A DNA stretch of 62,688 nucleotides from Nitrospira sp. (GTDB lineage: Bacteria > Nitrospirota > Nitrospiria > Nitrospirales > Nitrospiraceae). Made by a program: the position numbers and the translations under genes. Shown piece by piece: positions 21-61,174 of the stretch. Where the stretch lies: NCBI GenBank assembly GCA_031405355.1, contig JANNIV010000266.1:1-62688 (forward strand). The letters run 5' to 3'. Every line of letters starts with the position of its first letter. Position 1 is the stretch's first letter. Below the pieces are notes generated by a model. That model did no database searches. It had not been told where the DNA came from and saw nothing but the letters and a program-made list of their open reading frames with translations.

Positions 21-218
21 TTACTCCTCCCGATGCTTGAACCCAGCTGCGCTAAGGATTGCGTGACAAGTCCCGGTCGGCACTTCCCTTGAGCCATGAT
101 AATCAATACGGACCAGACGTTCTATCCCGGGCTTGCCATAATAACGAATGGAGCCCTTTTCCTTGATGAGTGTAAACCCATTGTGTTCCAACATCCTTAC
201 CAGCTCAGAGAACTTCAC
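21..218 (-). CDS. hicA: HicA-family type II toxin (small mRNA interferase)
   Basis: 65-aa ORF MKFSELVRMLEHNGFTLIKEKGSIRYYGKPG...IDYHGSREVPTGTCHAILSAAG. Size and the HG-x-x-E-x-P-x-GT motif are typical of HicA/YcfA toxins. Confidence 0.8.
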   Translation of the reverse strand: MKFSELVRMLEHNGFTLIKEKGSIRYYGKPGIERLVRIDYHGSREVPTGTCHAILSAAGFKHREE

Positions 219-318
219 GAAGAACCTTGGCTCGGTGTTTGGTGGTAACGCGCATCATTCAGAATCTTTCAACGAGTCAACGCATTATGTTCTTCGATCC
301 AAAACCTGTCAATCCGAG

Positions 319-464
319 AGATAGAAGAAGGGGTTCAGGCTGAAGTGGGTAGGCTGAAGTCCGAAGGGATTCAGGCTGAAGGCCGGAGTTCGTGATTCAA
401 AGTTCCGGATACTTCAGCCTTAACCCCTTCAGCCTGTGCCCCTAGTCCCCAACCTATCTACCTG
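319..464. repeat. Mosaic hairpin element, GGCTGAAGG/CCTTCAGCC family, copy 1
   Basis: The left half carries AGGCTGAAG three times (337-345, 351-359, 373-381). The right half carries CTTCAGCCT twice (412-420, 427-435) around a CCGGA...TCCGG centre. It starts with AGAAGAAGGGGTTCAG (323-338, the same 16-mer as 1392-1407). It ends with CCTATCTACCT (453-463), a terminal motif shared with 1562-1572, 5136-5146, 5628-5638 and 7256-7266. Confidence 0.8.
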
Positions 465-557
465 CGGCATCCTACAAATAGAAAGCCTAACCCCAATGGG
501 GGATTTTATGTATTGACCATGCCCTGTAGCATGCGAACTACGAGGCTCTACACAGGG

Positions 558-733
558 TCTAGGTAGAAGGTAACGACTCAGGGGCGCAGGCGAAGACTAG
601 GGGTACAGGCTGAAGGCTGACGGAAGGTCTGTCTGGTCTATTTGGTTTGTTTGGTTTATTTGGTTGAACCAGATAGACCAGATGACCAGACAGACGAGAC
701 AGACCTGCTTTCATGCTGAATCCCTTCAGCCTG
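558..733. repeat. Mosaic hairpin element, copy 2 (GGCTGAAGG-type arms enclosing a 9-bp array)
   Basis: GACTAGGGGTACAGGCTGAAGG (593-614) is the inverted partner of CCTTCAGCCTGTGCCCCTAGTC (426-447). The right end is CCCTTCAGCCT (721-731). The reverse complement of 615-712 matches 5525-5622 at 97 of 98 positions (hand alignment). Confidence 0.85.
626..705. repeat. 9-bp-periodic palindromic array (5 + 4 units)
   Basis: GGTCTGTCT GGTCTATTT GGTTTGTTT GGTTTATTT GGTTGAACC | AGATAGACC AGATGACC AGACAGACG AGACAGACC. The right units are the reverse-complement type of the left units. One unit is 8 nt. Confidence 0.9.
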
Positions 734-764
734 TATTTCGTAGCACTGTATGATGCGAATACAC

Positions 765-1427
765 ATGTCACGATATGCATTGCTGGTGGCTCTGTTGGTG
801 ATGCTCTGTGCCACGGAGACCATGGCCTATACGATTGGATTCGATGGCCTGACCAGATCTAATCTGAGTACGTTCACTGGTTCATACGAAGAAGATGGTT
901 ACACCGTCGAAGCGACAAAGGGTCAATGGTTCGAAGCACATATCTTCGGCAGTTCTATTCCCGCTATTGGCTCCGGCCCACTCTATAGCTCAGATCTAGG
1001 TATGTCGCAGGTTACCATAACCGAGGGCGGGGAGCGGTTCATATTCCAGGGCGTTGACCTTACAAGCAACAGCGCCCTCGGAACCACATACACGATTCAA
1101 GGCTTCCTAGCGACAAGTGGCGAAAATCCGATTTTCACAATACCTGTTGAGGTTGAGGCAATTAATCGCTTCGAGTCGAAACTGTTCAGCAATTTAGAAT
1201 CTGTGGACAAGCTGACCATCACCGGAACTCGCGGCAGGGGTGTCACCTCATTCAATATCGACAACATCCGAGTCGGGCATTACATAGACCCAGGCTCATG
1301 TCCAGGTTCCGATCCCAATTGTCCAGCTGTCCCCGAGCCAGCGTCCATCATGCTCCTCGGCGTTGGTCTGGCTGGGGTTGAGGTCTGGAGAAGAAGAAGG
1401 GGTTCAGTCCGAAGGGGTGAAGGCTGA
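765..1427 (+). CDS. Secreted protein with C-terminal PEP-CTERM sorting signal
   Basis: Signal peptide MSRYALLVALLVMLCATETMA (ATG 765; the ORF opens at 750). The C-terminus VPEPASIMLLGVGLAGVEVWRRRR has the PEP motif, a TM helix and an Arg cluster. The last 12 codons and the stop lie inside repeat copy 3. Confidence 0.85.
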   Translation: MSRYALLVALLVMLCATETMAYTIGFDGLTRSNLSTFTGSYEEDGYTVEATKGQWFEAHIFGSSIPAIGSGPLYSSDLGMSQVTITEGGERFIFQGVDLTSNSALGTTYTIQGFLATSGENPIFTIPVEVEAINRFESKLFSNLESVDKLTITGTRGRGVTSFNIDNIRVGHYIDPGSCPGSDPNCPAVPEPASIMLLGVGLAGVEVWRRRRGSVRRGEG

Positions 1428-1572
1428 GGAAGATAGGCTGAAGGGGGAAGTCGGATTAGCGGAATGGGCGACGGTTCGAGGTCCGAAGTTCGAGGTTCTA
1501 GATTTCAGGAACTTCGAACCGGGAACTTCGAACCCCTAGCCCCCAGCCTGAACCCCTTCAGCCTATCCACCT
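1392..1572. repeat. Mosaic hairpin element, copy 3 (overlaps the 3' end of the PEP-CTERM gene)
   Basis: The left end is AGAAGAAGGGGTTCAG. The 23-mer GGCTGAGGAAGATAGGCTGAAGG (1422-1444) is identical to 5056-5078. The core is GGTTCGAGGTCCGAAGTTCGAGGTTC ... GAACTTCGAACC twice (1509-1520, 1523-1534). The right end is CCCTTCAGCCTATCCACCT. Confidence 0.85.
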
Positions 1573-1634
1573 GAACCCCTGTGAGGAAACAGAAATCTCT
1601 ATGTCGAATCTGAACCAGGCCGTAGCATGAATCT

Positions 1635-1769
1635 GGTCTGTTCGGTCTATCTGGTCTATCTGGTCTCTCTGGTTCATCCGGTCAGTCAGGGTTAACCAAA
1701 CGCACGAGACAGACCCGACAGACCAAACAGACCGAACAGACCGAACAGACCAGATAAACGAGACAGATT
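1635..1769. repeat. 9-bp-periodic palindromic array (7 + 8 units, no phase slip)
   Basis: GGTCTGTTC GGTCTATCT GGTCTATCT GGTCTCTCT GGTTCATCC GGTCAGTCA GGGTTAACC | AAACGCACG AGACAGACC CGACAGACC AAACAGACC GAACAGACC GAACAGACC AGATAAACG AGACAGATT. The array ends 17 nt before the ATG at 1787. Confidence 0.9.
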
Positions 1770-1786
1770 ATCCTGCAAGGAGTTTT

Positions 1787-4078
1787 ATGGTGATGAACCG
1801 CTATTGGCCTATTTCAGCCCTTGTGCTTCCGCTGCTGTTGATGGCCGTGAGCGGGTGCACGAAGGAAACAGCAGCGACGAAGGCGGCTCATCACAAGGAG
1901 CGAGCGATTGCCTATTTCGACAAGGGCGAATATCGCGAGGCGATCGTCGAACTGAAGAACGTCGTGCAAATCGCTCCGGACGATCATGACGCTCATTATC
2001 GGATGGCGCTGTCCCACCTGAAGCTGGGAACGGTCCCGGATCTTCAGCAATCGTTTAAGGAATTGTCCGCTACTGTCGAGTTGAACGCCGGGAATCAGGA
2101 CGCGCAGTTGAAGCTCGGACAGCTTCTGCTTCTGGCCAAGGAACCGGCAAAAGCCCGCGCGCATGCCGAGATCGTCCTGACCTCGGCGCCGGATAGCAAA
2201 GAGGGTGTGATCCTTCGCGGGGCAAGCTTGCTGAACGAAGGAAAAATCCAAGAAGGCATCGCAGAACTGAAGCGGGCGATCGTGCTGGATCCCCAGAACG
2301 TCAACCTCTACATCGATCTGGCCCGGGCCTACGTGCACATCAAAGATTATGGCTCGGCTGAATCGGTGTTGCAGCAGGCGTTGCAGGCCAATCCCCAATC
2401 GATCGAGGCGCGGTTCGCCCTCGGCGATCTCCATCTCATCAACAGGAAAGCCGACCTTGCCGAAGCCGAATACAAGCGCGCGCTCAGCGATGCGCCGGAT
2501 CGGCCGGAACCTCGCGTCAAGCTGGCCGGCTTCTATGCGTCGGTCAATCGCCTTGCCGATGCCGAAGCGACCTACTCAGCCTGGGTCCAATCTAAGCCGC
2601 AAGACGATGCTCCCTTGCTGGCCTTGGGGGATTTCTATCGAGCCACAGACCAACTCGACAAAGCCGCAGCTACGTATCAAAACGCGCTTGCCGTCAATCC
2701 GAAATCGACGGCCTCGCGGGATCGGCAGATTGCCGTACTCATCGCCAGCCACAAGCTCGATGAAGCAGAGCGACAGACCACCGCCATTCTGCAAGCGAAC
2801 AGCAAGGACTCCAGTGGCCGTCTCTTCGAGGCTCAGCTCAAGCTGGCCCGTGGACAGGTCGACAATGCCTTGCCTCTGCTTCAAGCCTTGAGTCAGGAGG
2901 AACCCCGCTCACCGGCCCCGCATCATTTCTTGGGCGTGGTCTATGCGAAGAAGGGCGATCTTCCCCAAGCCGTTCAGGAACTCAAAACGGTCATCGATCT
3001 GGCGCCGAATGCGATCGAATCGCATGCAGTTCTGGCCTCCGTCTATCTCACCCAAGGATCGGCAGACCTTGCCCTCGAACAAGCGCAGGCCGTGCTGCGC
3101 CTCAATCCCCGGAGCGTCCAGGCTGCCACGATCATGGGAGAGTCCTATCTGCGGAAAAACGATACGGCAAAGGCCGGCCAGGTCTTTGAATCGATCATCA
3201 AGGTCTCGCCGAACCATGAGATCGCGCATCACCGGCTGGGATTGATTGCGCGCTCCAACAAGAACCCTGTCGAGGCCCTGGCGCATTTCGAACAGGCGCT
3301 CAAGGCGAAGCCGGATTTCATTGAGCCGCTCGCACAGATTGCCACCATCAAGGCCAGCCAGGGCAAATTGGCCGAGGCGCGTGATCGCATCAAGCAACAT
3401 CGCGAGTTGGTCCCCAAGAACCCGCTGGTCTATAACCTGCTGGGCCAACTGTTCACTGCGACCAAGGAGTATGACCAGGCGGAGGCTTCGTTCAAGCAGG
3501 CGATCGCGCTGAATGACGCGATCCTTGAGTCCTATACCGGCCTTGCAGGACTGTACTTGCAGACGAAACGATTGGACGAGGCGATCCGGGAATATGAAAC
3601 CGCCCTGGCGAAAAATCCCAAGCTGGCCCCGGCCCATATGATGATCGGCATGATTCACGAGTCGCGCCAGCAGTATGATCAGGCGCAGGCACGTTATCAG
3701 GAGGCGGTCCGCATCAATCCACGGTTCGCTCCGGCAGCCAACAACTTGGCCTGGCTCATGGTCGAGCGCGGGGGGAACGTCGATGTCGCCTTGGGGTACG
3801 CGCAGACGGCGAGGGAGGTGACGCCGACCGATCCAAACGTTGCGGACACACTTGGGTGGATCTATTACCAGAAGAAGGTCTATCTAAAAGCGGTCTCCCT
3901 CCTGAAGGAAGCAGCCGATCAACTCCATGAGAATCCGGTGATCTTGTACCACTACGGCATGGCTCAGTATAAAAACGAAAATAAACCTGAAGCCCGCAAA
4001 GCTCTAGAGAAGTCGCTACAACTCAACGCGAACCATCCTGGCGCATCCGAAGCGAAGGCGACGTTGGCGGAGCTTTGA
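1787..4078 (+). CDS. TPR-repeat lipoprotein, PEP-CTERM-system PrsT-like
   Basis: 763 aa. Lipoprotein signal with lipobox LLLMAVSGC. The rest is wall-to-wall TPR units (repeated A..Y..AL.L.P motifs). It sits next to PEP-CTERM substrate genes, as in PEP-CTERM/exosortase loci. Confidence 0.85.
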   Translation: MVMNRYWPISALVLPLLLMAVSGCTKETAATKAAHHKERAIAYFDKGEYREAIVELKNVVQIAPDDHDAHYRMALSHLKLGTVPDLQQSFKELSATVELNAGNQDAQLKLGQLLLLAKEPAKARAHAEIVLTSAPDSKEGVILRGASLLNEGKIQEGIAELKRAIVLDPQNVNLYIDLARAYVHIKDYGSAESVLQQALQANPQSIEARFALGDLHLINRKADLAEAEYKRALSDAPDRPEPRVKLAGFYASVNRLADAEATYSAWVQSKPQDDAPLLALGDFYRATDQLDKAAATYQNALAVNPKSTASRDRQIAVLIASHKLDEAERQTTAILQANSKDSSGRLFEAQLKLARGQVDNALPLLQALSQEEPRSPAPHHFLGVVYAKKGDLPQAVQELKTVIDLAPNAIESHAVLASVYLTQGSADLALEQAQAVLRLNPRSVQAATIMGESYLRKNDTAKAGQVFESIIKVSPNHEIAHHRLGLIARSNKNPVEALAHFEQALKAKPDFIEPLAQIATIKASQGKLAEARDRIKQHRELVPKNPLVYNLLGQLFTATKEYDQAEASFKQAIALNDAILESYTGLAGLYLQTKRLDEAIREYETALAKNPKLAPAHMMIGMIHESRQQYDQAQARYQEAVRINPRFAPAANNLAWLMVERGGNVDVALGYAQTAREVTPTDPNVADTLGWIYYQKKVYLKAVSLLKEAADQLHENPVILYHYGMAQYKNENKPEARKALEKSLQLNANHPGASEAKATLAEL

Positions 4079-4080
4079 AA

Positions 4081-4166
4081 CAGGCTGAAGGGGTAAAGGC
4101 TGAAGTTCTTGGTTCGATGTTCTGGGTTCGAAGTTCCTGAAACCTCGAACTTCGAACCTCGAACCG
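4081..4166. repeat. Mosaic hairpin element, copy 4 (starts 3 nt after the TPR gene stop)
   Basis: CAGGCTGAAGGGGTAAAGGCTGAAG is followed by a perfect 12-bp stem, GGTTCGAAGTTC (4125-4136) / GAACTTCGAACC (4147-4158), with a 10-nt loop. No right-hand CTTCAGCCT arm is present. Confidence 0.75.
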
Positions 4167-4300
4167 GCGCCCGCCCCTGCGCCCCGCGCTGCCCCCGTCA
4201 AATTTCTTTACACCCCTCTTTTAGCCTCGCCCGTTTCGTAACTACTTAATATTCCAGGCAATCACAAAGACCTGTGCGAATCAGTCATAGAGTGAGGCCA

Positions 4301-4337
4301 AGATCTCTGTATAGATTTTTTACAGAGTTTGGATCTC
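4301..4337. promoter_or_regulatory. Imperfect palindrome, candidate enhancer (UAS) for the downstream sigma-54 promoter
   Basis: AGATCTCTGTA-TAGATTTTT-TACAGAG-TTTGGATCT. The inner 7-bp arms CTCTGTA/TACAGAG and outer AGATC/GATCT arms surround an A/T-rich core. It lies about 75-110 bp upstream of the -24/-12 element at 4409-4424. Confidence 0.3.
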
Positions 4338-4407
4338 AGAACAACTCTGACTCGTATGAGAAATTACAACTGCTTGATAATACTACGTAGCGTAGGATGG
4401 AAAGGAT

Positions 4408-4425
4408 CTGGCACAGAGTCTGCTT
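4408..4425 (+). promoter_or_regulatory. Sigma-54 (RpoN) -24/-12 promoter candidate
   Basis: CTGGCAC-AGAGT-CTGCTT matches the consensus TGGCAC-N5-TTGCW. GG is at 4410-4411 and GC at 4422-4423, exactly 12 nt apart. It lies about 95 nt upstream of the ATG at 4518. Confidence 0.5.
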
Positions 4426-4517
4426 AGGGGTTACGTAGTGATACGTGACGAAGCTGTCCATCCTGTTCTGGCGCCGTGACGGGTTTCGCAACGCAGACGC
4501 TTTTAGAAGTGAGAATC

Positions 4518-5075
4518 ATGAAACGGTATCTGTGGCTTGTCGGTCCATTGGTAATGCTTTGGGGTGCTGAGGCAAGGGCGTCGAACATCGAATTCGAAAC
4601 CCATCACAATTCAAAGACAGACGGAGCCTATACTTCGTCCAACCAAGACGATTTCATCGGCAATTGGCCCCAAGGTACATGGCCTTTTGCAGGAAGTCCC
4701 ACCGATACGACGCGCCATATGTATTTCGCCGGCGCAACTGGGCAGTCGCAGGATGCCGAGGAACACCGCACCCACGAGAGGGATAAATTCAAAGATTTCG
4801 AATACAAGGACCGTGGTCGCAATGGGGATGACGATGACAAGTACAAGGTAAAAGGCGACTATCAGTATTCCAAGCACGATCGGGATTCTGGTCGGGATTA
4901 TGACCGGGACGATAAGAAGGACTATGATCGCGATAAGGATTACCCTAAACATCACGATAAATATCCTAAAGATCACCATGAGTATCAAAAAGTTCCCGAG
5001 CCAGCATCCCTCTTGCTCCTCGGCGCCGGGTTGGCTGGAATCGGGATCTGGAGGAGGCTGAGGAAGATAGGCTGA
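4518..5075 (+). CDS. Secreted, highly charged low-complexity protein with PEP-CTERM sorting signal
   Basis: Signal peptide MKRYLWLVGPLVMLWGAEARA (ATG 4518; the ORF opens with GTG 4476). The D/K/R/Y/H-rich body reads ...DRDSGRDYDRDDKKDYDRDKDYPKHHDKYPKDHHEYQK. The C-terminus VPEPASLLLLGAGLAGIGIWRRLRK is a PEP-CTERM signal. Confidence 0.85.
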   Translation: MKRYLWLVGPLVMLWGAEARASNIEFETHHNSKTDGAYTSSNQDDFIGNWPQGTWPFAGSPTDTTRHMYFAGATGQSQDAEEHRTHERDKFKDFEYKDRGRNGDDDDKYKVKGDYQYSKHDRDSGRDYDRDDKKDYDRDKDYPKHHDKYPKDHHEYQKVPEPASLLLLGAGLAGIGIWRRLRKIG

Positions 5076-5146
5076 AGGTTTCGGAACTTCGACCTCCAAC
5101 CTCCAACCTCCAACCTTCAGCCTGAATCCCTTCGGCCTATCTACCT
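5055..5146. repeat. Mosaic hairpin element, copy 5 (overlaps the 3' end of the second PEP-CTERM gene)
   Basis: Contains GGCTGAGGAAGATAGGCTGAAGG (5056-5078), GGAACTTCGACC, the heptamer CTCCAAC three times (5094-5114) and CTTCAGCCTGAATCCCTTCGGCCTATCTACCT. Confidence 0.85.
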
Positions 5147-5166
5147 AAATAGCTACCTTCACGCAG

Positions 5167-5203
5167 CGCCAGTCCTCGCAAGGGGGCTGGCTTTTTGTAT
5201 TTT
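5167..5203 (+). terminator. Rho-independent terminator candidate
   Basis: GCCAGTCC-TCGCAAGG-GGGCTGGC stem-loop followed by TTTTTGTATTTT. It lies downstream of the PEP-CTERM gene and repeat copy 5. Confidence 0.6.
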
Positions 5204-5267
5204 GAGCCGAGGGGGACTGGCTCCGGCTGAGAAGGGGGACAGTCCCGGTGCGGGACAGTCCCCGCCG

Positions 5268-5477
5268 GTGCCTGCAATTCGGCTCACTGCTGAGCGCTGG
5301 ACGCACATCACTGAAGAACACTGTGAATTGGCCGGACTGCGTGCAGATGTACTAGAGACGGTGCTGCGACCAGAGCGTATCCTCCTCGGAGGAGATGAGG
5401 AACTGATCGCGCTCCGTGAATTGGAACAAGGGAAACATCTCGTGGTCGTGTATCGGGAACGGACCGAATCACCCTAA
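5268..5477 (+). CDS. Small conserved hypothetical protein, possibly 3'-truncated
   Basis: GTG 5268 gives (M)PAIRLTAERWTHITEEHCELAGLRADVLETVLRPERILLGGDEELIALRELEQGKHLVVVYRE... I recall this small-protein family normally continuing past the VVVYRE block. Here the frame stops about 25 nt before repeat copy 6. Confidence 0.4.
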   Translation: MPAIRLTAERWTHITEEHCELAGLRADVLETVLRPERILLGGDEELIALRELEQGKHLVVVYRERTESP

Positions 5478-5502
5478 CTACTTCTCGGTTCAACCTCAGA
5501 CG

Positions 5503-5638
5503 GTAGGCTGAAGGGGTTCAGGCCGAAAGCAGGTCTGTCTCGTCTGTCTGGTCATCGGGTCTATCTGGTTCAACCAAATAAACCAAACAAACCAAATAGA
5601 CCAGACAGACCTTCCGTCAGCCTTCAGCCTATCTACCT
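5503..5638. repeat. Mosaic hairpin element, copy 6 (inverted near-identical twin of copy 2)
   Basis: GTAGGCTGAAGGGGTTCAGGCCGAAAGCA + 9-bp array + TTCCGTCAGCCTTCAGCCTATCTACCT. Matches the reverse complement of 615-712 at 97/98 positions. Confidence 0.9.
5532..5611. repeat. 9-bp-periodic palindromic array (5 + 4 units)
   Basis: GGTCTGTCT CGTCTGTCT GGTCATCG GGTCTATCT GGTTCAACC | AAATAAACC AAACAAACC AAATAGACC AGACAGACC. Confidence 0.9.
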
Positions 5639-5723
5639 AGTCGCCGGAGCGCCGAATTCACTCGATTTCGTTGACGGAAACAGCAGGTTCTGCCATCCTG
5701 GCACAAACCGCTGGGGAGGCATC

Positions 5724-7025
5724 ATGGCGCAGAAAAAAGAGCAGGCACGAAAAATTGCAGTTGTTGGACTTGGCTATGTGGGCCTTCCTATTGCTGTCGC
5801 ATTCGGGAAGCAGCAGCATGTGATCGGTTTTGACATCAACAAGGCCAAGATTGCTGAACTACAGAAGGGGCTTGACCGTACAGGGGAAGTGTCTGCCGCG
5901 GATCTGAAAGCGACGGACATTCAATATACCTATCAGCCCAGCGAGCTCAAAGCGGCTGATTTTATCATCGTGGCCGTGCCCACGCCTATTAATGAGGCCC
6001 TTCAGCCGGATTTGACGGCGCTTCGCAAATCGTCAGAATTGATCGGGGCCAACCTGGCGCCAGGATCGATCGTGGTCTTCGAGTCGACGGTCTATCCTGG
6101 AGCCACTGAGGAAGTGTGCCTGCCGATCCTCGAGCAGGCCTCCGGGATGAAGTGTGGAGTGGACTTCAAGCTCGGCTATTCTCCTGAACGGATCAATCCA
6201 GGCGATAAGGAACATCGGCTGGAAACCATCATCAAGGTGGTGTCGGCCCAAGACGACGCATCGCTGGAGATCGTCGCCAAGACCTACGAACTCGTGGTCA
6301 AGGCGGGGATCCATCGGGCTTCTAGTATCAAGGTGGCGGAGGCGGCGAAGGTGATTGAAAATACTCAGCGGGATCTGAACATCGCGCTGATGAACGAGTT
6401 GGCGCTCATTTTCCATCGGCTCGGGATCGATACGAAGTCGGTCCTGGAGGCTGCGGGAACCAAGTGGAACTTTCTCAAGTTTTCACCGGGATTGGTCGGC
6501 GGACATTGTATCGGGGTCGACCCCTATTACCTGACGAGCAAAGCCGAATCGGTGGGCTATCACCCCCAGGTGATTCTCGCAGGCCGGCGCATTAACAATG
6601 GCATGGGAAAGTTTGTAGCAGAGCAGACGATGAAGCGCTTGAGTGAGCTGGCTCGGCCGGTCAAGGAGCTCAAGGTGGCTGTCTTGGGACTCACCTTTAA
6701 AGAGAACGTGCCGGACTTACGCAACAGCAGGGTGCCGGACATTATTCGCGAACTGCGCGAGTATGGGGTGCAAGTCCTGGTGCATGATCCGATCGCGCAA
6801 ACAGAAGAGGCGTTCGAAGAGTACGGGATACATCTAAGCCAGTGGGACGATCTCAAAGATATCGACGGAATGGTTGTGGCAGTCGCGCATCGTAAATATG
6901 TCGATATGGGGATGCAGAAGTTGCTCAAGCCTCTCCGCAGTCAGCAGGAGGGGGTGGTGATCGATGTGAAATGTCTGCTCGATCCGGCGAAATTGCCAAA
7001 GACGCTGAAATACTGGCGGTTGTAG
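5724..7025 (+). CDS. Nucleotide-sugar 6-dehydrogenase (UDP-glucose/GDP-mannose dehydrogenase family; UDP-N-acetylhexosamine dehydrogenase-like, TviB/WbpO type)
   Basis: 433 aa. N-terminal Rossmann motif VVGLGYVGLPIAVAFG and catalytic Cys block GGHCIGVDPYY. Three-domain length typical of the family. Confidence 0.9.
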   Translation: MAQKKEQARKIAVVGLGYVGLPIAVAFGKQQHVIGFDINKAKIAELQKGLDRTGEVSAADLKATDIQYTYQPSELKAADFIIVAVPTPINEALQPDLTALRKSSELIGANLAPGSIVVFESTVYPGATEEVCLPILEQASGMKCGVDFKLGYSPERINPGDKEHRLETIIKVVSAQDDASLEIVAKTYELVVKAGIHRASSIKVAEAAKVIENTQRDLNIALMNELALIFHRLGIDTKSVLEAAGTKWNFLKFSPGLVGGHCIGVDPYYLTSKAESVGYHPQVILAGRRINNGMGKFVAEQTMKRLSELARPVKELKVAVLGLTFKENVPDLRNSRVPDIIRELREYGVQVLVHDPIAQTEEAFEEYGIHLSQWDDLKDIDGMVVAVAHRKYVDMGMQKLLKPLRSQQEGVVIDVKCLLDPAKLPKTLKYWRL

Positions 7026-7044
7026 CAGCCCCCGATCAGGTGTT

Positions 7045-7266
7045 TAGGCTGAAAGCACTAGGCTGAAAGCACTAGGCTGAAGGGATTCAGACTGAAGGCT
7101 GAAGTGTTCTGAACTTCGAACCATGACCTTCCCTGTCCGCCTCTAACTCAGAACTTAGAACCCAGAACTCAGAACTTCTCTGCCCGTCTCGCTCTCGCTT
7201 CACGACCTTCTCGACTCCCACGACCCCTAAAAACCTTCAGCCTAAAAATCTTCAGCCTATCTGCCT
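7045..7266. repeat. Mosaic hairpin element, copy 7 (largest)
   Basis: TAGGCTGAAAGCAC twice in tandem (7045-7072), then TAGGCTGAAGGGATTCAGACTGAAGGCTGAAG and GAACTTCGAACC. A heptamer run follows: CAGAACT TAGAACC CAGAACT CAGAACT (7149-7176). The element ends with CCTTCAGCCTAAAAATCTTCAGCCTATCTGCCT. Confidence 0.85.
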
Positions 7267-7648
7267 GCAATTCCAGATTGGCTCTTGCAATATTGCACGT
7301 GGTTTTGCGTCCATCGCCTCTTTGTTAGGGTCTCCCCCTCCTTAAGCGTCATATACAGTTTCCCTACAAAATACTAATGTTTGCCATGCGTGACGGAGTT
7401 CAGGTGGACCAGGCCCCCGCGATCGGACAAGTGATAAAGGTCTATGTGCCGGCGCCCATCACCGTTGCATAGACTTCGACACTTTCGGAAGCGCGGTGGT
7501 CCAGGAAGTTGCGTGTGGCTGGAACGACGACGCGGGTTACTACTTAGCCAACCGCAAGTTATGTTCTAAGTCAAAGATTGGAATGTGAGTTATGGGGAAA
7601 ACAACAGGCGCTCTGTATGCGGAAGACGGTTCTGAGTTGGGTTACTAC

Positions 7649-8317
7649 ATGAGGTCAGCTATGAGCATGATGACGGGTGTGTGTTCGATCCTCGGCATCG
7701 TGTGTTTGACAGCGACAACGGTGTTGGCAGAACCGACGCCGTCCGTCATGAACCTGCCTAATGAATTTGCACAGGAGAAGCCATCGTTGATCGTGACGAC
7801 GGACTACATCATTGGGCCGGAAGATGTGCTGGATATCACCGTATGGAAAAGCCCGGATCTTTCTAAAACGGTCCAAGTTCGTCCCGACGGCAGGATTTCT
7901 TTGCCGTTGATTGGAGATGTGGATGCAGTCGGCCAAACCAGCGCGCAGTTGACAGAGCGAATTTCTACTCGGTTGAAGGCCTACGTGGAGAGTCCAGCTG
8001 TGTCGATTGTTGTGAAAGAAGTCAACAGCTATGCCATTTTCGTATTGGGCGAAGTCGTCAAGCCGGGACGCTATCCGTTGAAGAGCAAGACGACGTTGCT
8101 TCAGGCTATAACGCTGGCCAGCGGATTTACGCCGGTCGCGTCCAGAAATAAGATCGTCATTTTTCGTTTTCCCAAGGAGGGAGACTCCTTGATGAAGATC
8201 AAGGCAAGTTTTGACGACATTGTCTTGCGGGATGGGATCAATCAGAACATCGAGCTGAAGCCCGGCGATACCATCGTCGTGCCGTCCGAGTCGATGGTGG
8301 TCATGCCAAGCAGGTAG
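7649..8317 (+). CDS. Polysaccharide export protein, Wza/EpsE-like (periplasmic Poly_export + SLBB)
   Basis: Signal peptide MRSAMSMMTGVCSILGIVCLTATTVLA. The ORF opens at 7592, so the start is uncertain. Poly_export block: IGPEDVLDITVWKSPDLSKTVQVRPDGRISLPLIGDVDAVGQT. Confidence 0.85.
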   Translation: MRSAMSMMTGVCSILGIVCLTATTVLAEPTPSVMNLPNEFAQEKPSLIVTTDYIIGPEDVLDITVWKSPDLSKTVQVRPDGRISLPLIGDVDAVGQTSAQLTERISTRLKAYVESPAVSIVVKEVNSYAIFVLGEVVKPGRYPLKSKTTLLQAITLASGFTPVASRNKIVIFRFPKEGDSLMKIKASFDDIVLRDGINQNIELKPGDTIVVPSESMVVMPSR

Positions 8318-18005: not shown

Positions 18006-18845
18006 ATGATCACCGACACTCATAAATCCAACGGAAAGATCCGGCACACACGCGATTATATGTGTGAGATCGGCGTGGTTGAACTCCCTCCGCTCACCAG
18101 CCCATTTGATCCAGGCTATGATCCGGTCACGCTGGAGAGTCACCTGGAGCAGAGCAGGCATTTGATCTCCTCGCTGAAAATTTCGATGGCCTGCTGGCAG
18201 GTTGCCAGCGAGATGGCGACACGCAAAAAGGTCGATGCGGCGCGGCGCCTCAATGTTCCCGTCTGCACGGGAGGGGGGCCATTCGAGATCGCTGTCTATT
18301 TCAAAAAACTTCCGGAGTTTCTCGACCTCTGCGCCGACATCGGTGTGACGGGGATCGAAGCAGGGGCGGGATTCATCGAGAATGTTCTGAACCCCCACGA
18401 AGTCGTGCGTCTCGCTTCCGAACGCGGGCTTACTGTCCAGTTCGAGATCGGCGAGAAGCATGGAGGAACGTTTACAGAGGATGTAGTGACGGAACTGGTC
18501 GACCAGGGAAAGCGCTGGCTCGATGCCGGGGCGGGCAAGATTGTGGTCGAAGGGCGTGAGAGCGCGCAAGACGTAGGCCTGTTTGACGGAAAAGGCAAGT
18601 TGAACGCGGGATTCGCGGAGCGGTTCGTCGAGGCCTACGGGATGGACCGGACAATCTTCGAGGCGCCGAACAAGCCAAGTCAATTTGCGCTGCTCAATCA
18701 TTTCGGCCCACGTGTGCATCTCAGTAACGTCCGGTTGGAAGAATTGCTGCGGGTGGAGATTTATCGCAGGGGATTGCACTCCGATGCGTTTCAGCAAATG
18801 ATCTTGCGGCCCAAGGGGCCTGCCCAAAACGGTCTATACGCGTAG
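18006..18845 (+). CDS. comA: (2R)-phospho-3-sulfolactate synthase (ComA family)
   Basis: VVEGRESAQDVGLFDGKGKL and TIFEAPNKPSQFALLNHFGPRVHLSNVRLEELLRVEIYRRGL align block for block with archaeal ComA as I recall it (IIEGRESGKGKGLFDKEGKV; VIFEAPQKSQQVAFILKFG..VNLANI...LETLRRGL). AAGGAGAG RBS. Confidence 0.85.
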   Translation: MITDTHKSNGKIRHTRDYMCEIGVVELPPLTSPFDPGYDPVTLESHLEQSRHLISSLKISMACWQVASEMATRKKVDAARRLNVPVCTGGGPFEIAVYFKKLPEFLDLCADIGVTGIEAGAGFIENVLNPHEVVRLASERGLTVQFEIGEKHGGTFTEDVVTELVDQGKRWLDAGAGKIVVEGRESAQDVGLFDGKGKLNAGFAERFVEAYGMDRTIFEAPNKPSQFALLNHFGPRVHLSNVRLEELLRVEIYRRGLHSDAFQQMILRPKGPAQNGLYA

Positions 18846-18919
18846 GAGGCTGCGGAAAAACGTGATTTATGAATAAAGCGTCAGTGAAATCTTACGTATG
18901 GCACTGATGTCACATTAAT

Positions 18920-19046
18920 CACAGAATGCTCAAAAAGGCCATCCAGCAAGGCCGCAGCGAGCGAAGGGGCGAGGCGTACGCTTCGGTACGTTGAGCCTCT
19001 GAGTGATGCGAGAACGCCGCTGGTGGACTTTTTCAGCATCTTGCTA
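18920..19046. mobile_element. MITE-like element, family 2, copy 1 (between comA and comB)
   Basis: Terminal inverted repeats CAGAATGCTCAAAAAGGCC / GGACTTTTTCAGCATCTTGCTA. Core is CAAGGCCGCAGCGAGCGAAGGGGCGAGGCGTAC-GCTTCG-GTACGTTGAGCC. Homologous copies lie at 44493-44795, 53727-53829 and 62519-62646. Confidence 0.8.
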
Positions 19047-44492: not shown

Positions 44493-44795
44493 AGCAGGAT
44501 GCTGAAAAATCCCGCCAGCAGGGGAGGGATGGCCCGGTGAGTCCCCTATGCTCGCGCAACGCGCGGTCTAAGAAGACCCTCGTTGGACGCGCGCAGTGAG
44601 GGACTCATCCGGGCCATCCTGGGCAACGTACACAAGCAAGCTTGGAAGGATCATCCTTGTTCGCTCGCTGCGGCCTTGCTTGGGACAAGGCGCGTCCCTG
44701 GGCGGAGAGGCTGTCTTGGTAGACTCAGGGCGGGAGGGTGAAATAGTCGCCAGGGTTGGACGGGTGAGAAGTCTGGCCATTTTGAGCATCCTGCG
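44493..44795. mobile_element. MITE-like element, family 2, copy 2 (expanded, about 300 bp)
   Basis: Terminal inverted repeats GCAGGATGCTGAAAA / TTTTGAGCATCCTGC match at 14/15. The internal TTCGCTCGCTGCGGCCTTGCTTGG is homologous to the other copies. Both short track ORFs (44568..44789, 44596..44805) lie inside it. Confidence 0.75.
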
Positions 44796-44982
44796 ATTAT
44801 GTTGATCTCGGCGTCATCGGTAAGATGCCATTGGCGGGTTATGTTTAAATCGAGTTTTTCCGCAGCCCGCTAGGTCGCTAAGAAGCAGTAGATGAGGTTC
44901 CGTTAGCATATACGTCCTTCTTGTAGTTGGGATTGTTTCAGAGCCCAAGAGTTGAACCCATAGACATACAGAGGAGAGGATC

Positions 44983-61000: not shown

Positions 61001-61096
61001 GTTGTCTGGTCTATCTGGTTTGTTTGGTTGATTTGGTTCATCTGGTTAGTTTCGTTCAACCAAAAAACCAAACAAACCAAATCAACCAGATCAACC
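61001..61096. repeat. 9-bp-periodic palindromic array (6 + 4 units), distal copy
   Basis: (GTTGTCT) GGTCTATCT GGTTTGTTT GGTTGATTT GGTTCATCT GGTTAGTTT CGTTCAACC | AAAAAACC AAACAAACC AAATCAACC AGATCAACC. Lies between the UXS gene and proA. Confidence 0.9.
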
Positions 61097-61174
61097 CTCC
61101 TCCCTGCCTTGACCGCGTTGAAACTCCCGCTGTATCCTGTTCCCGTCCCAACGTCATGAGGTAAGGGTCTTTTT

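Follow-up and report, generated by a model that had tools for sequence, protein, structure and literature searches.

The composite elements and their locus

The window (the whole 62,688-nucleotide stretch of Nitrospira DNA that was analysed) carries the four arrays of 9-bp units mentioned in the original prediction, at 615-712, 1621-1773, 5525-5622 and 61003-61100. The first and third form the pair that was singled out there, and the second and fourth differ strongly from them. The neighbouring genes are also as described: the gene at 750-1427 encodes a PEP-CTERM protein (PEP-CTERM gene 1) and that at 5724-7025 a nucleotide-sugar dehydrogenase. Composite copy 1 ends 16 bp upstream of the former, and copy 2 lies about 82-100 bp upstream of the latter. 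Array 4 is found between a gene for an NAD-dependent sugar epimerase/dehydratase (end 60985) and proA (start 61175). The hairpin that follows PEP-CTERM gene 1 encloses a second kind of foldback, built from GTTCGAGG-type 7/14-bp units (1466-1540). No sigma-54 promoter was detected in or beside the element; a site with one mismatch occurs in intergenic DNA at 4409-4424 alone, and such sites are no more numerous than expected by chance. The features are collected in Table 1.

Table 1. Repeats and hairpins of the window
Feature	Position	Strand	Remarks
'Site 1', GGCTGAAGG-type hairpin without array	328-440		holds the composite element in the relative L155
Outer module GACT(C)AGGGG(Y)RCAGGC(K)GAAG, ~20 bp, two tandem copies	575-616	+	the second alone within the shared element
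Composite copy 1	605-734		terminal inverted repeats: stem ACAGGCTGAAGG (605-616) pairs with CCTTCAGCCTGT (723-734)
Nonamer foldback core of copy 1	626-709	+	period-9 tandem rows
GGCTGAAGG-type outer hairpin	1432-1567		begins directly after the stop codon of PEP-CTERM gene 1
Array 2, longer foldback, same family	1621-1773		14 bp upstream of prsT (1787-4078)
CCTTCAGCCTGAATCCCTTCGGCCTATCTACC module	5112-5146	+	pairs with 5502-5530; direct repeat at 5618-5640
Composite copy 2	5505-5642		inverted relative to copy 1; core ~5528-5611, B strand on -
Long hairpin after the dehydrogenase gene	7045-7262		arms: tandem TAGGCTGAAAGCAC (7045-7081), CCTAAAAACCTTCAG (7226-7259)
Array 4, long-centre subfamily	61003-61100		TGGTTAGTTTCGTTCAACCA on + strand

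Direct comparison reproduced the identity of 615-712 to the reverse complement of 5525-5622 at 97 of 98 positions, and the sole mismatch (CCAGATG versus CCCGATG) is the one noted before. A repeat search stretches the pair to 595-732 against 5505-5642, a length of 138 nt that is 93% complementary (129/138 identical). The outer arms are collinear, as claimed, with AGGCTGAAGGCTGACGGAAGG at one end of the pair and CCTGCTTTC(AT/GG)(G/C)CTGAA(T/C)CCCTTCAGCCT at the other. Beyond these limits identity is at background in the 60-nt flanks compared, and the surroundings are unrelated, again as described. The extent given for copy 1, 558-733, needed correction: 595-732 is shared with copy 2, whereas 558-594 lies outside the repeated element, and within it 575-594 merely repeats, in tandem and in degenerate form, the outer module at 595-614 (period-19 row, 575-615, 2.0 copies).

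An open reading frame on the minus strand (559-780) crosses copy 1 (...QPNKPNKPNRPDRP...). It was rejected as a gene since arrays are found in all gene contexts and one arm on either strand would yield such a peptide; units of 9 bp leave frames open, which is the only reason why this one runs through copy 1. As predicted, the pair is non-coding and non-autonomous and arose by copying, and the match is not one of chance or shared coding.

Architecture of the core and the outer module

In the core, 9-bp units form a foldback, with (TGGTYTRTY)n followed by (RAYARACCA)n around the asymmetric centre GGTTGAACC. In copy 1 the left arm is (GGTYTRTYT)x4.5 and the right arm consists of (ACCAGAYAG)-type units, one of just 8 bp. 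The strand with GGTTGAAC at the centre is termed B and its opposite A, and the copy 1 core has B on the plus strand. Family members keep an asymmetric core of ~60 nt, ...TGGTYTRTYTGGTTTKTTTGGTTGAAC(GAAACTA)ACCAGATGAACCAAAY.AACCAGA..., flanked by inverted 9-bp runs that are TGGT-type on the 5' side and ACCA-type on the 3' side. This arm polarity is strict: TGGT precedes ACCA 114 times and the opposite order occurs 0 times. Both an alignment and a centre-anchored listing revealed position-by-position conservation between sites and species, and subfamilies with different termini are visible in the core alignment.

In the subtype found in the window, the core is nested inside a REP-like GGCTGAAGG/CCTTCAGCC hairpin. 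The original prediction regarded these two sequences as the element's own termini, which was not upheld. They belong instead to an independent REP-like module, which also makes hairpins without an array downstream of most genes in the first 7.3 kb of the window; the GGCTGAAGG module was counted 20 times in that part of the window and 49 times in L155. Inverted termini enclosing the 9-bp array do exist in the sense that an outer stem is present (~22 bp in L157), which in copy 1 surrounds linkers and the 9-bp foldback core. The widespread unit, present throughout Nitrospiraceae, is the 9-bp array, and the 138-bp composite is only one lineage-specific subtype. The three bases 5' of GGCTGAAG are ATA (17), TCA (15), ACA (13), GTA (9), GAA (7) and others. 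The A before GGCTGAAG is constant, GTAG is a minority, and no such motif is seen on the 9-bp arrays.

Distribution and genomic setting

A family scan with three 9-bp units against species-representative genomes gave at least 119 loci, 69 of them from Nitrospir* genomes among the matches listed. Among the same matches, hairpin arrays were present in 69 Nitrospir* cases (+8 in ambiguously labelled bins) versus 2 in other taxa, and on this count the 9-bp core family is almost confined to Nitrospiraceae. For the source genome the sequence examined was 62.7 kb, and for the others it came in 8-kb blocks. The density of extra, unseeded arrays is 6.5 per 100 kb in the Nitrospira loci, and the window has 6.4 per 100 kb. 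Arrays are also present in the chromosome of N. moscoviensis NSP M-1 (CP011801, about 2,673,502-2,673,609; L058), which argues against an assembly artefact. Literature searches on Nitrospira palindromic or intergenic repeats, MITEs, RAYTs, stem-loops and the literal repeat sequences returned nothing relevant, and the family of intergenic non-coding foldback repeats in Nitrospira is apparently undescribed.

All arrays with reliable gene calls are intergenic. The genes that flank them are ordinary housekeeping genes, and every gene context is represented, convergent gene ends included. An array often ends within a few bases of the ribosome-binding site or start codon that follows it, or else lies directly after a stop codon. 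A cassette-like organisation was rejected, as the array neighbours are housekeeping genes and not mobile or accessory ones.

Age of the pair and turnover of the family

In 10 of 10 related contigs (95-99% identity) both copies occupy the same sites and differ by the same A/C substitution. The duplication is therefore older than the divergence of these strains, and there is no ongoing homogenisation of the two copies; of the predicted recent duplication, the copying event stands, and its date is recent in a relative sense only. The arrangement of the pair also bears on the possibility that it is a DNA-inversion switch, in which recombination between the copies would flip the 4.8-kb segment with PEP-CTERM gene 1, prsT and PEP-CTERM gene 2 and cause phase variation. 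The inverted repeats are 93-99% identical, 4,772 bp apart and flank surface-protein genes. Yet every related contig spanning the region is collinear with the window (0 inverted), L155 has just one copy, and no recombinase gene was identified close to the repeats in the annotated ORFs of 1-9 kb, which makes such a switch extremely improbable.

Between lineages the positions of the element differ (L155 and L157 versus the window), and the presence/absence polymorphism expected of a mobile repeat is thus real. The pair belongs to a dispersed family, and a further copy, 96.5% identical, is present at a third locus, L157, which is unrelated to the window sites. This copy is located 49 bp upstream of a polysaccharide-export gene that adjoins LuxR-type and PilZ genes. 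Compared with the window, L155 shows 83-88% identity in genes and 79% in intergenic DNA, yet 98.5% in the element. The single L155 copy sits inverted in a different GGCTGAAGG hairpin and is missing from both window sites; the L155 equivalent of the CCTTCAGCCTGAATCCCTTCGGCCTATCTACC module abuts the region upstream of the dehydrogenase, without an array. Altogether the 125-140-bp composite is found at four different sites in three lineages. Among its extra copies, L157 alone is an independent observation.

The arrays themselves are dynamic. Unit numbers at the same site vary between strains (L132/L146/L151 and L133/L144/L156), with arms that differ by whole units. At the array 2 site relatives retain an array, its content replaced and its centre flipped, in contigs ~99% identical elsewhere. 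At one orthologous gene junction L036 has an array and L161 has none. A conserved prsT regulatory element was rejected, as prsT homologues at 80, 70 and 61% identity have no upstream array.

These patterns could be those of a true non-autonomous transposon (MITE, foldback-type or REP-like), mobilised by a RAYT/IS200- or IS110-family enzyme encoded elsewhere. Such an enzyme would recognise the hairpin and bring the element into other hairpins, by cut-and-paste or by copying, with GGCTGAAGG hairpins as preferred targets. The four composite sites are non-homologous and the unit has sharp ends in its outer inverted modules, its conservation is far above that of the flanks (98.5% versus 79-88%), and subfamilies with distinct termini would be expected from master copies. 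Orientation is random, arrays abut gene ends tightly and the genes are intact. An IS110-family transposase gene lies 1.5 kb from the element in L155, and IS110/IS1111 elements often target REP hairpins. However, no shared direct repeat, the mark of a target-site duplication, was found at the flanks of the four copies (two in the window, L155, L157). What separates filled from empty sites is the replaced interior of a GGCTGAAGG hairpin that was already there rather than a clean insertion, the 5' context of GGCTGAAG is mixed (ATA, TCA, ACA, GTA) with no fixed GTAG, and the array-flanked genes are housekeeping. The predicted partner transposase was not found either: TBLASTN searches of 1.16 Mb (window and loci) with IS200 TnpA and E. 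coli RAYT queries detected no RAYT/IS200-type gene, and the weak matches in L138, L026 and L031 are thymidylate-kinase-like (dTMP-kinase-like) genes. A transposon of this kind is therefore considered rather unlikely.

Folding and functional tests

The predicted hairpins are very stable. Copy 1 folds at -82.5 kcal/mol as RNA (z = -12.3) and at -34.3 kcal/mol as DNA (z = -8.2), and other arrays at -36 to -90 kcal/mol. Folding is stronger for the strand with the GGTTGAAC centre and a T-rich 5' arm, owing to G.U pairs at positions where its opposite has A.C. This agrees with the centre orientation of the arrays, 32 versus 7, a ratio that may partly reflect the seed pattern used for locus collection, which favours regular T-rich arms. 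Given this folding bias, a strand-specific single-stranded form could matter.

A functional RNA would account for the stability, for G.U pairs that consistently favour one strand, and for arrays placed close to start codons or right after stop codons. The element would then be a 5' UTR or intercistronic hairpin acting as a terminator or attenuator, an RNase III site or a stabiliser, or else a small RNA. Several results point the other way. Unit numbers of the two arms are uncorrelated (r = -0.01), mirrored units are no more alike than offset units, and permutation of the right-arm units leaves folding unweakened (mean z = +0.08, n = 64). For an alignment of 19 members, the RNAalifold covariation term was -0.4, and 2 of 16 pairs showed changes on both sides. 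At gathering thresholds no Rfam family matched anywhere in the window, and at E <= 1 positions 200-7700 matched sub-threshold eukaryotic miRNA-hairpin models alone, which indicate no more than 'a long hairpin'. The better-folding strand is sense in 16 cases and antisense in 18, so there is no orientation bias relative to genes, and in the window it is antisense to the flanking genes in three of the four arrays. Arrays are also not kept at orthologous sites over larger distances. The uncorrelated arms, neutral permutation and lack of covariation, of an Rfam match, of a T-run and of a sense bias argue that the element is not a selected hairpin or structured RNA, and a functional RNA is very unlikely.

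Other classes were considered in turn. A terminator scan returned only trivial 6-pair sub-stems inside the element, and the long array hairpins have no T-run; an intrinsic terminator was rejected on this ground. The organism does use canonical terminators, one of which lies nearby at 5168-5201. An integron attC site was rejected because GTTGAAC is at the apex and not the base, the orientation is random and the flanks are housekeeping genes; no integrase appeared in the annotated ORFs of 1-9 kb. CRISPR was rejected, as the 9-bp units are contiguous, without spacers, and form two inverted runs. A foldback architecture does match, with inverted arms of tandem units and independent lengths, as a resemblance for which homology is not proposed.

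A proposed explanation for the pair

The four known composite copies are all upstream of PEP-CTERM/exopolysaccharide-locus transcription units, a placement that could mean function. One form of this idea is a cis-acting DNA site, with the 9-bp array binding a nucleoid-associated protein or a PEP-CTERM/exopolysaccharide regulator and the composite serving as an EPS regulatory module. The composites precede PEP-CTERM gene 1, the dehydrogenase-export operon and the L157 export gene, and are unusually conserved between lineages. Units have invariant TGGT.T.T positions, and most of their variation consists of transitions at three positions; tandem binding sites would also explain the absence of register-specific pairing better than a selected hairpin would. 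However, the family at large neighbours unrelated housekeeping genes in any context, convergent ends among them. The position of the composite (16 to about 300 bp upstream) and its orientation vary, L155 has no composite before the dehydrogenase, prsT homologues in other Nitrospira lack the array, and just one extra copy (L157) is independent. A spacing of 9 bp moreover puts successive sites on different helix faces. Such a regulatory site is quite unlikely.

The preferred reading, of moderate confidence, is that the pair represents two copies of one lineage-specific subtype of a large Nitrospiraceae family of intergenic foldbacks, a largely neutral BIME/BOX-like mosaic copied between homologous hairpins. 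In this family, arms would lengthen or shorten by whole 9-bp units through replication slippage, as the unit differences between strains suggest. Since 9 is divisible by 3, such a change should do no harm where the end of a reading frame falls within an array. The element may flip as a whole, or in its asymmetric centre alone, through recombination between its own inverted arms, which would produce the flipped states observed. Elements would also be copied between intergenic hairpins, most likely through gene conversion or ectopic homologous recombination, with the shared GGCTGAAGG modules and 9-bp units as anchors; a less likely route is through an enzyme that acts on the hairpin. The outcome of copying is evident from the same 138-bp unit at four sites in three lineages. 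Gene conversion is suggested by the lack of target-site duplication, identity that ends inside shared modules, and replacement-type filled and empty sites. The window pair would stem from a single such event, which placed the copies in inverted orientation and preceded the divergence of the sampled strains. No specific role is indicated for the two copies, and any effect is probably that of a generic long transcript hairpin, for example as a processing or stability barrier between cistrons.

The cross-lineage conservation of the composite is hard to reconcile with neutral vertical inheritance. At 98.5% and 96.5% identity, against genes that differ by 12-17%, either recent inter-lineage exchange or selection is needed. 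A more speculative reading, which is unlikely, holds that the nonamer arrays are the substrate of a Nitrospiraceae-specific system, and that conservation at the EPS loci reflects selection. The system could be a hairpin-targeting mobilisation without target-site duplication or a reader of 9-nt units, in which a protein, or a single-stranded DNA or RNA form, would read the units. In the latter version the T/G-rich arm TGGTTTGTT would be a 'universal wobble partner' pairing with every variant of the opposite arm, and the hairpin would therefore survive slippage.

Significance for Nitrospira genomes

Nitrospira are the main nitrite oxidisers, and complete ammonia oxidisers, of soils, waters and treatment plants, and their genomes are almost all metagenomic. 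With ~300 copies per genome, intergenic regions would be filled with 70-150-bp hairpins, and the repeat family probably gives rise to contig breaks and local misassemblies. Gene calls are likely distorted because reading frames run into arrays. Since unit numbers differ between strains, arrays are likely usable as strain-typing markers, and the family may be a clade signature that flags mis-binned contigs. It would add a distinct architecture, with an asymmetric core, inverted 9-bp runs and strict polarity, to the few types of bacterial interspersed repeats, and a mobilising enzyme or binding protein, if one exists, would be new. The pair itself is one ordinary copying event in the family and is not special to the PEP-CTERM locus.

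Comparison with known repeat systems

REP/BIME sequences of Enterobacteria and Pseudomonas share with the Nitrospira family an extragenic location, imperfect palindromes, lack of coding capacity and copy numbers in the hundreds. Both occur in either orientation, are packed tightly between genes, form mosaics with other motifs and differ in occupancy between relatives. The GGCTGAAGG module, a small CTGAA/TTCAG hairpin that often follows TAG, resembles a REP unit. However, the Nitrospira core is 70-150 bp of tandem 9-bp units, while a REP is a single palindrome of 20-40 nt; the Nitrospira repeat has no fixed 5' GTAG and no sequence similarity to any REP, and no RAYT gene was found in the 1.16 Mb searched.

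BOX elements of Streptococcus pneumoniae (boxA-(boxB)n-boxC) are similarly modular and intergenic, with an inner module of variable number between conserved modules, which lie at the ends in one case and at the centre in the other. They also have strong predicted secondary structure, no coding capacity and no established mobilising mechanism. The BOX module is 45 bp and runs in one direction, in contrast to 9 bp in two inverted runs, the host clades are unrelated and there is no sequence similarity. Short tandemly repeated repetitive (STRR) sequences of heterocystous cyanobacteria are another case of clade-specific, multicopy intergenic tandem arrays, of 7 bp and not 9 bp, but they are described as one-directional heptamers without a conserved asymmetric centre or strict inverted polarity.

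Bacterial MITEs (Correia/NEMIS, ERIC, Nezha, Chunjie) are comparable in size (~100-150 bp), terminal inverted repeats, intergenic or intra-operon location and presence/absence polymorphism. They have target-site duplications and usually an autonomous IS with the same ends, neither of which was found for the Nitrospira element in the sequence examined, where the IS110 copy of L155 was the sole IS noted, and the arms of MITEs are not tandem arrays. Foldback (FB) elements of Drosophila and other eukaryotes have inverted arms of tandem short units, with independent lengths and possibly a short centre, as the Nitrospira arrays do. They are eukaryotic, kilobase-sized, flanked by target-site duplications and sometimes linked to coding sequences, traits of which none was seen for the Nitrospira repeats.

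The composite pair and its surroundings

The near-identity first noticed in the pair holds, with 615-712 matching the reverse complement of 5525-5622 at 97 of 98 positions. Direct sequence comparison also bore out the collinear arms, and annotation the PEP-CTERM and sugar dehydrogenase genes said to lie beside the copies. In direct comparison and a repeat search the similarity reaches 595-732 against 5505-5642 (129/138); beyond that only background is seen. The window is an XrtA/PEP-CTERM exopolysaccharide (EPS) locus encoded nearly entirely on the + strand.

Hairpins are nested in the 138-bp unit: an outer stem surrounds asymmetric linkers (CTGACGGAAGG on one side, CCTGCTTTCATGCTGAATC on the other). 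In copy 1 the core runs through about 4.5 GGTYTRTYT units, the centre GGTTGAACC, and then complementary ACCAGAYAG-type units. The + strand of copy 1 is predicted to fold at -82.5 kcal/mol as RNA (z = -12.3 against shuffles) and at -34.3 kcal/mol as DNA (z = -8.2). For the opposite strand the predicted RNA fold loses about 21 kcal/mol, since it has A.C in place of the + strand's G.U.

The outer modules, GGCTGAAGG/CCTTCAGCC, had been taken for the element's own inverted ends. However, they also form array-less hairpins 3' of most genes in the first 7.3 kb, some of which hold another foldback, of GTTCGAGG-type units. The outer "termini" are thus a REP-like repeat in their own right. The second foldback kind consists of 7/14-bp tandem units at 1466-1540 and 4111-4172, inside GGCTGAAGG hairpins, and the two are 85-94% complementary to one another.

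Several other features were observed. Downstream of PEP-CTERM gene 2 lies a canonical intrinsic terminator (5168-5201; GCCAGTCCTCGCAAGGGGGCTGGC then TTTTTGTATT), followed by a 91-aa ORF (5202-5477) with no Pfam or NCBIfam match. L155, the orthologous locus in a more distant relative, retains the terminator and some of this ORF, and their order relative to the repeat modules differs. A sigma-54-type promoter-like site with one mismatch (TGGCACAGAGTCTGCT, 4409-4424, +) is found 52-94 bp upstream of PEP-CTERM gene 2; a window scan found none near PEP-CTERM gene 1 and a window-wide count not above chance. Within the EPS gene cluster, a 99-nt inverted repeat with 74% complementarity (18843-18941 and 44774-44872) probably derives from paralogous coding sequence.

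Locations of genes, repeat features and comparison loci (window coordinates unless a locus is named)
Feature	Location	Remark
PEP-CTERM sorting domain proteins	750-1427; 4476-5075	domain annotation
PrsT	1787-4078	
TviB-like nucleotide-sugar dehydrogenase	5724-7025	export genes next
Outer stem of copy 1	605-616; 723-734	ACAGGCTGAAGG pairs with CCTTCAGCCTGT
Copy 1 core of 9-bp units	626-709	
Other arrays of the same kind	1621-1773; 61003-61100	
Array-less GGCTGAAGG/CCTTCAGCC hairpins	328-440; 1432-1567; 4082 onward; 7045-7262	
prsT-upstream array	1621-1773; L001 4186-4282; L005 2931-3018; L002 125-265; L155 ~7190-7340	
Toxin-antitoxin island	21-218 (-); L001 310-2891; L005 93-1636; L155 3154-5773	
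GCTGAAAAAGYCCGCCAGC/GCGCCACAGACCGTGGCGCGTGAAGCGCG modules	L018 ~3340-3400; L149; L158; L029; L023; L096; L033; L042; L142; L143; L150	Nitrospira
Runs upstream of start codons	L035 ~970; L043 ~6268; L048; L086; L089 ~22; L100 ~405; L111	outside Nitrospira
Runs in Firmicutes and others	L107 ~5588; L095, L129, L057; L037 ~4090	L107, Staphylococcus intermedius; L095, L129, L057 (Paenibacillus)

History of the pair

The identical dehydrogenase recurs in ten metagenome contigs whose identity with the window is 95-99%. Copy 1 is present in both contigs that reach its site and copy 2 in 10/10, so that every spanning contig is filled. All their cores are those of the window, with the same A/C difference between the two copies. 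The duplication therefore predates the ten sampled strains and the copies are not being homogenised. The original prediction of recent copying was right about the copying, but not about its recency relative to these strains.

In L155 (genes 83.5-87.7% identical to the window, intergenic DNA 77-79%) there is a single composite copy, 98.5% identical over 136 bp. It sits in opposite orientation in the first GGCTGAAGG hairpin upstream of PEP-CTERM gene 1 (equivalent to window 328-440), while the equivalents of both window sites are array-less hairpins; the presence/absence difference sought among relatives thus exists at both. In a third lineage the composite, 96.5% identical over 143 bp, stands 49 bp 5' of the gene for a polysaccharide-export protein in a different EPS-type locus (L157), which also encodes a LuxR-family regulator, a PilZ protein and a beta-barrel protein. 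The composite is found at four sites in three lineages and is far better conserved than its surroundings.

A mobile or copied non-autonomous element, as originally proposed, is partly supported, by the dispersed family and the turnover of sites. Target-site duplications are absent from all four copies (two in the window, one each in L155 and L157), and a search of the 1.16 Mb of window and loci found no IS200/RAYT-type gene. An IS110-family transposase lies 1.5 kb from the L155 composite, within a toxin-antitoxin island. The main rival explanation is true, enzyme-driven transposition. Comparison of filled and empty sites shows that the interior of a pre-existing hairpin was replaced. Copying between sites probably proceeded by ectopic recombination, or by gene conversion, with the shared modules as anchors.

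The DNA just 5' of the EPS locus is a variable toxin-antitoxin island: the window has a HicA gene there, and relatives have BrnT, DUF4258 and probable HicA/HicB-type genes. Identity to L155 reaches 96% over window 184-338 against 83-88% for the genes beside it, a contrast that suggests recombination between lineages.

A repeat family in Nitrospiraceae

The larger result is the repeat family, which seems undescribed: it is absent from the searchable literature by the names or sequences tried. A pattern of two and a half units (TGGTYTRTYTGGTYTRTYTGGTY), with a chance expectation of zero in the window, occurs at no fewer than 119 loci in 185,579 species-representative genomes. Among the matches listed, 69 are in genomes whose titles read Nitrospira, Nitrospiraceae, Nitrospirota or similar (one being the chromosome of N. 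moscoviensis NSP M-1) and five more are in bins with other labels and the same array kind. Hairpin arrays are nearly exclusive to the Nitrospira group (69 + 8 vs 2 among these matches); the listed matches in other phyla are one-directional runs, some of them coding. Non-seed arrays in Nitrospira loci number 6.5 per 100 kb and the window holds 4 in 62.7 kb (6.4 per 100 kb), which suggests roughly 300 arrays per genome.

The 22-nt centre of the window element was found at 31 loci in metagenome contigs, with differing arms and flanks. Centre-anchored listing and alignment show that positional homology among arrays is real: about 60 nt are conserved (...TGGTYTRTYTGGTTTKTTTGGTTGAAC(GAAACTA)ACCAGATGAACCAAAY.AACCAGA...), fading outward. 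TGGT-type arms come first and ACCA-type arms second in 114 cases, and the reverse order occurs in 0. Subfamilies differ by flanking module, for example GCTGAAAAAGYCCGCCAGC and GCGCCACAGACCGTGGCGCGTGAAGCGCG, or GGCTGAAGG in the window lineage. The short GCTGAAAAAGYCCGCCAGC modules and the small hairpin GCGCCACAGACCGTGGCGCGTGAAGCGCG adjoin arrays in many Nitrospira; their order is fixed, a sign of mosaic subfamilies.

Typical Nitrospira-type foldback arrays were also seen in bins labelled otherwise: L046, L093 (Acidobacteriota), L104 (Streptomycetaceae), L019 and L020 (uncultured bacterium). These bins may be contaminated or mislabelled; if they are, the repeat might be used to mark the clade.

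Runs of the same 9-nt unit in a single direction often lie directly 5' of a Shine-Dalgarno sequence and start codon in Deltaproteobacteria, Syntrophales, WOR-3 and similar bins. By eye, this holds for ~19/76 runs in the ACCARAYAR orientation against ~8/76 in the opposite one, and the former could represent a C/A-rich leader. At some loci at least, the pattern seems to be coding in Firmicutes and some others: an in-frame reading by eye gives repeats of the tripeptide Pro-(Asp/Asn)-(Lys/Arg), within putative surface proteins in L107 and at an ORF N-terminus in L037.

Variation at array sites

Unit number varies between strains at a given site (L132/L146/L151 and L133/L144/L156). The array in front of prsT occupies a common site in the window and four other loci. 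There units are replaced and the asymmetric centre flipped even among contigs ~99% identical elsewhere; either the site is a hotspot of local change or the repeat may have been misassembled. No array precedes the prsT homologues that share 80, 70 and 61% identity.

Array-flanked genes are housekeeping genes. At a deaminase/phosphopantetheinyl-transferase junction, L036 has an 81-bp array where orthologous L161 is empty and the genes overlap. The upstream deaminase frame of L036 enters the array, which supplies its last ~13 residues and stop codon (6045-6572 and 6539-6620). In L157 (4658-4777) an array contains the annotated start of the beta-barrel gene, and a plausible signal peptide follows further downstream. 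Gene calls beside arrays are therefore unreliable. The 9-bp period would be tolerated at gene ends because nine is a multiple of three.

Structure, function and classification

Selection for pairing is absent. The two arms show no correlation in unit number (r = -0.01), and at variable positions mirrored units resemble each other no more than offset ones do. Folding lost no strength when the right-arm 9-mers were permuted (mean z = +0.08, n = 64), and RNAalifold found essentially no covariation (term -0.4). These tests rule out both a structured RNA and a hairpin kept by selection; the potential to form a hairpin is therefore a side effect of having a single unit type in inverted runs. Nor is there a strand bias with respect to genes: the better-folding strand is sense to co-directional neighbours in 16 cases and antisense in 18, ruling out a tie to transcription direction (gene contexts: 39 co-directional, 13 convergent, 7 divergent).

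A functional reading is kept alive by two observations. The strand-specific G.U advantage agrees with centre orientation 32 vs 7, a count in which the seed pattern favours regular T-rich arms, and the composite is highly conserved in front of EPS transcription units. Any effect on expression would be the generic one of a long hairpin.

Other classes were also rejected. Array hairpins lack the T-run of a canonical terminator, whereas the textbook one downstream of PEP-CTERM gene 2 has it; no known RNA family matched; and the arrays do not qualify as CRISPR or attC. They form a dispersed family with a conserved core in which unit numbers vary, centres flip and site occupancy turns over. The evidence best supports classing them as mosaic interspersed repeats of the REP/BIME or BOX type, here built as foldbacks.
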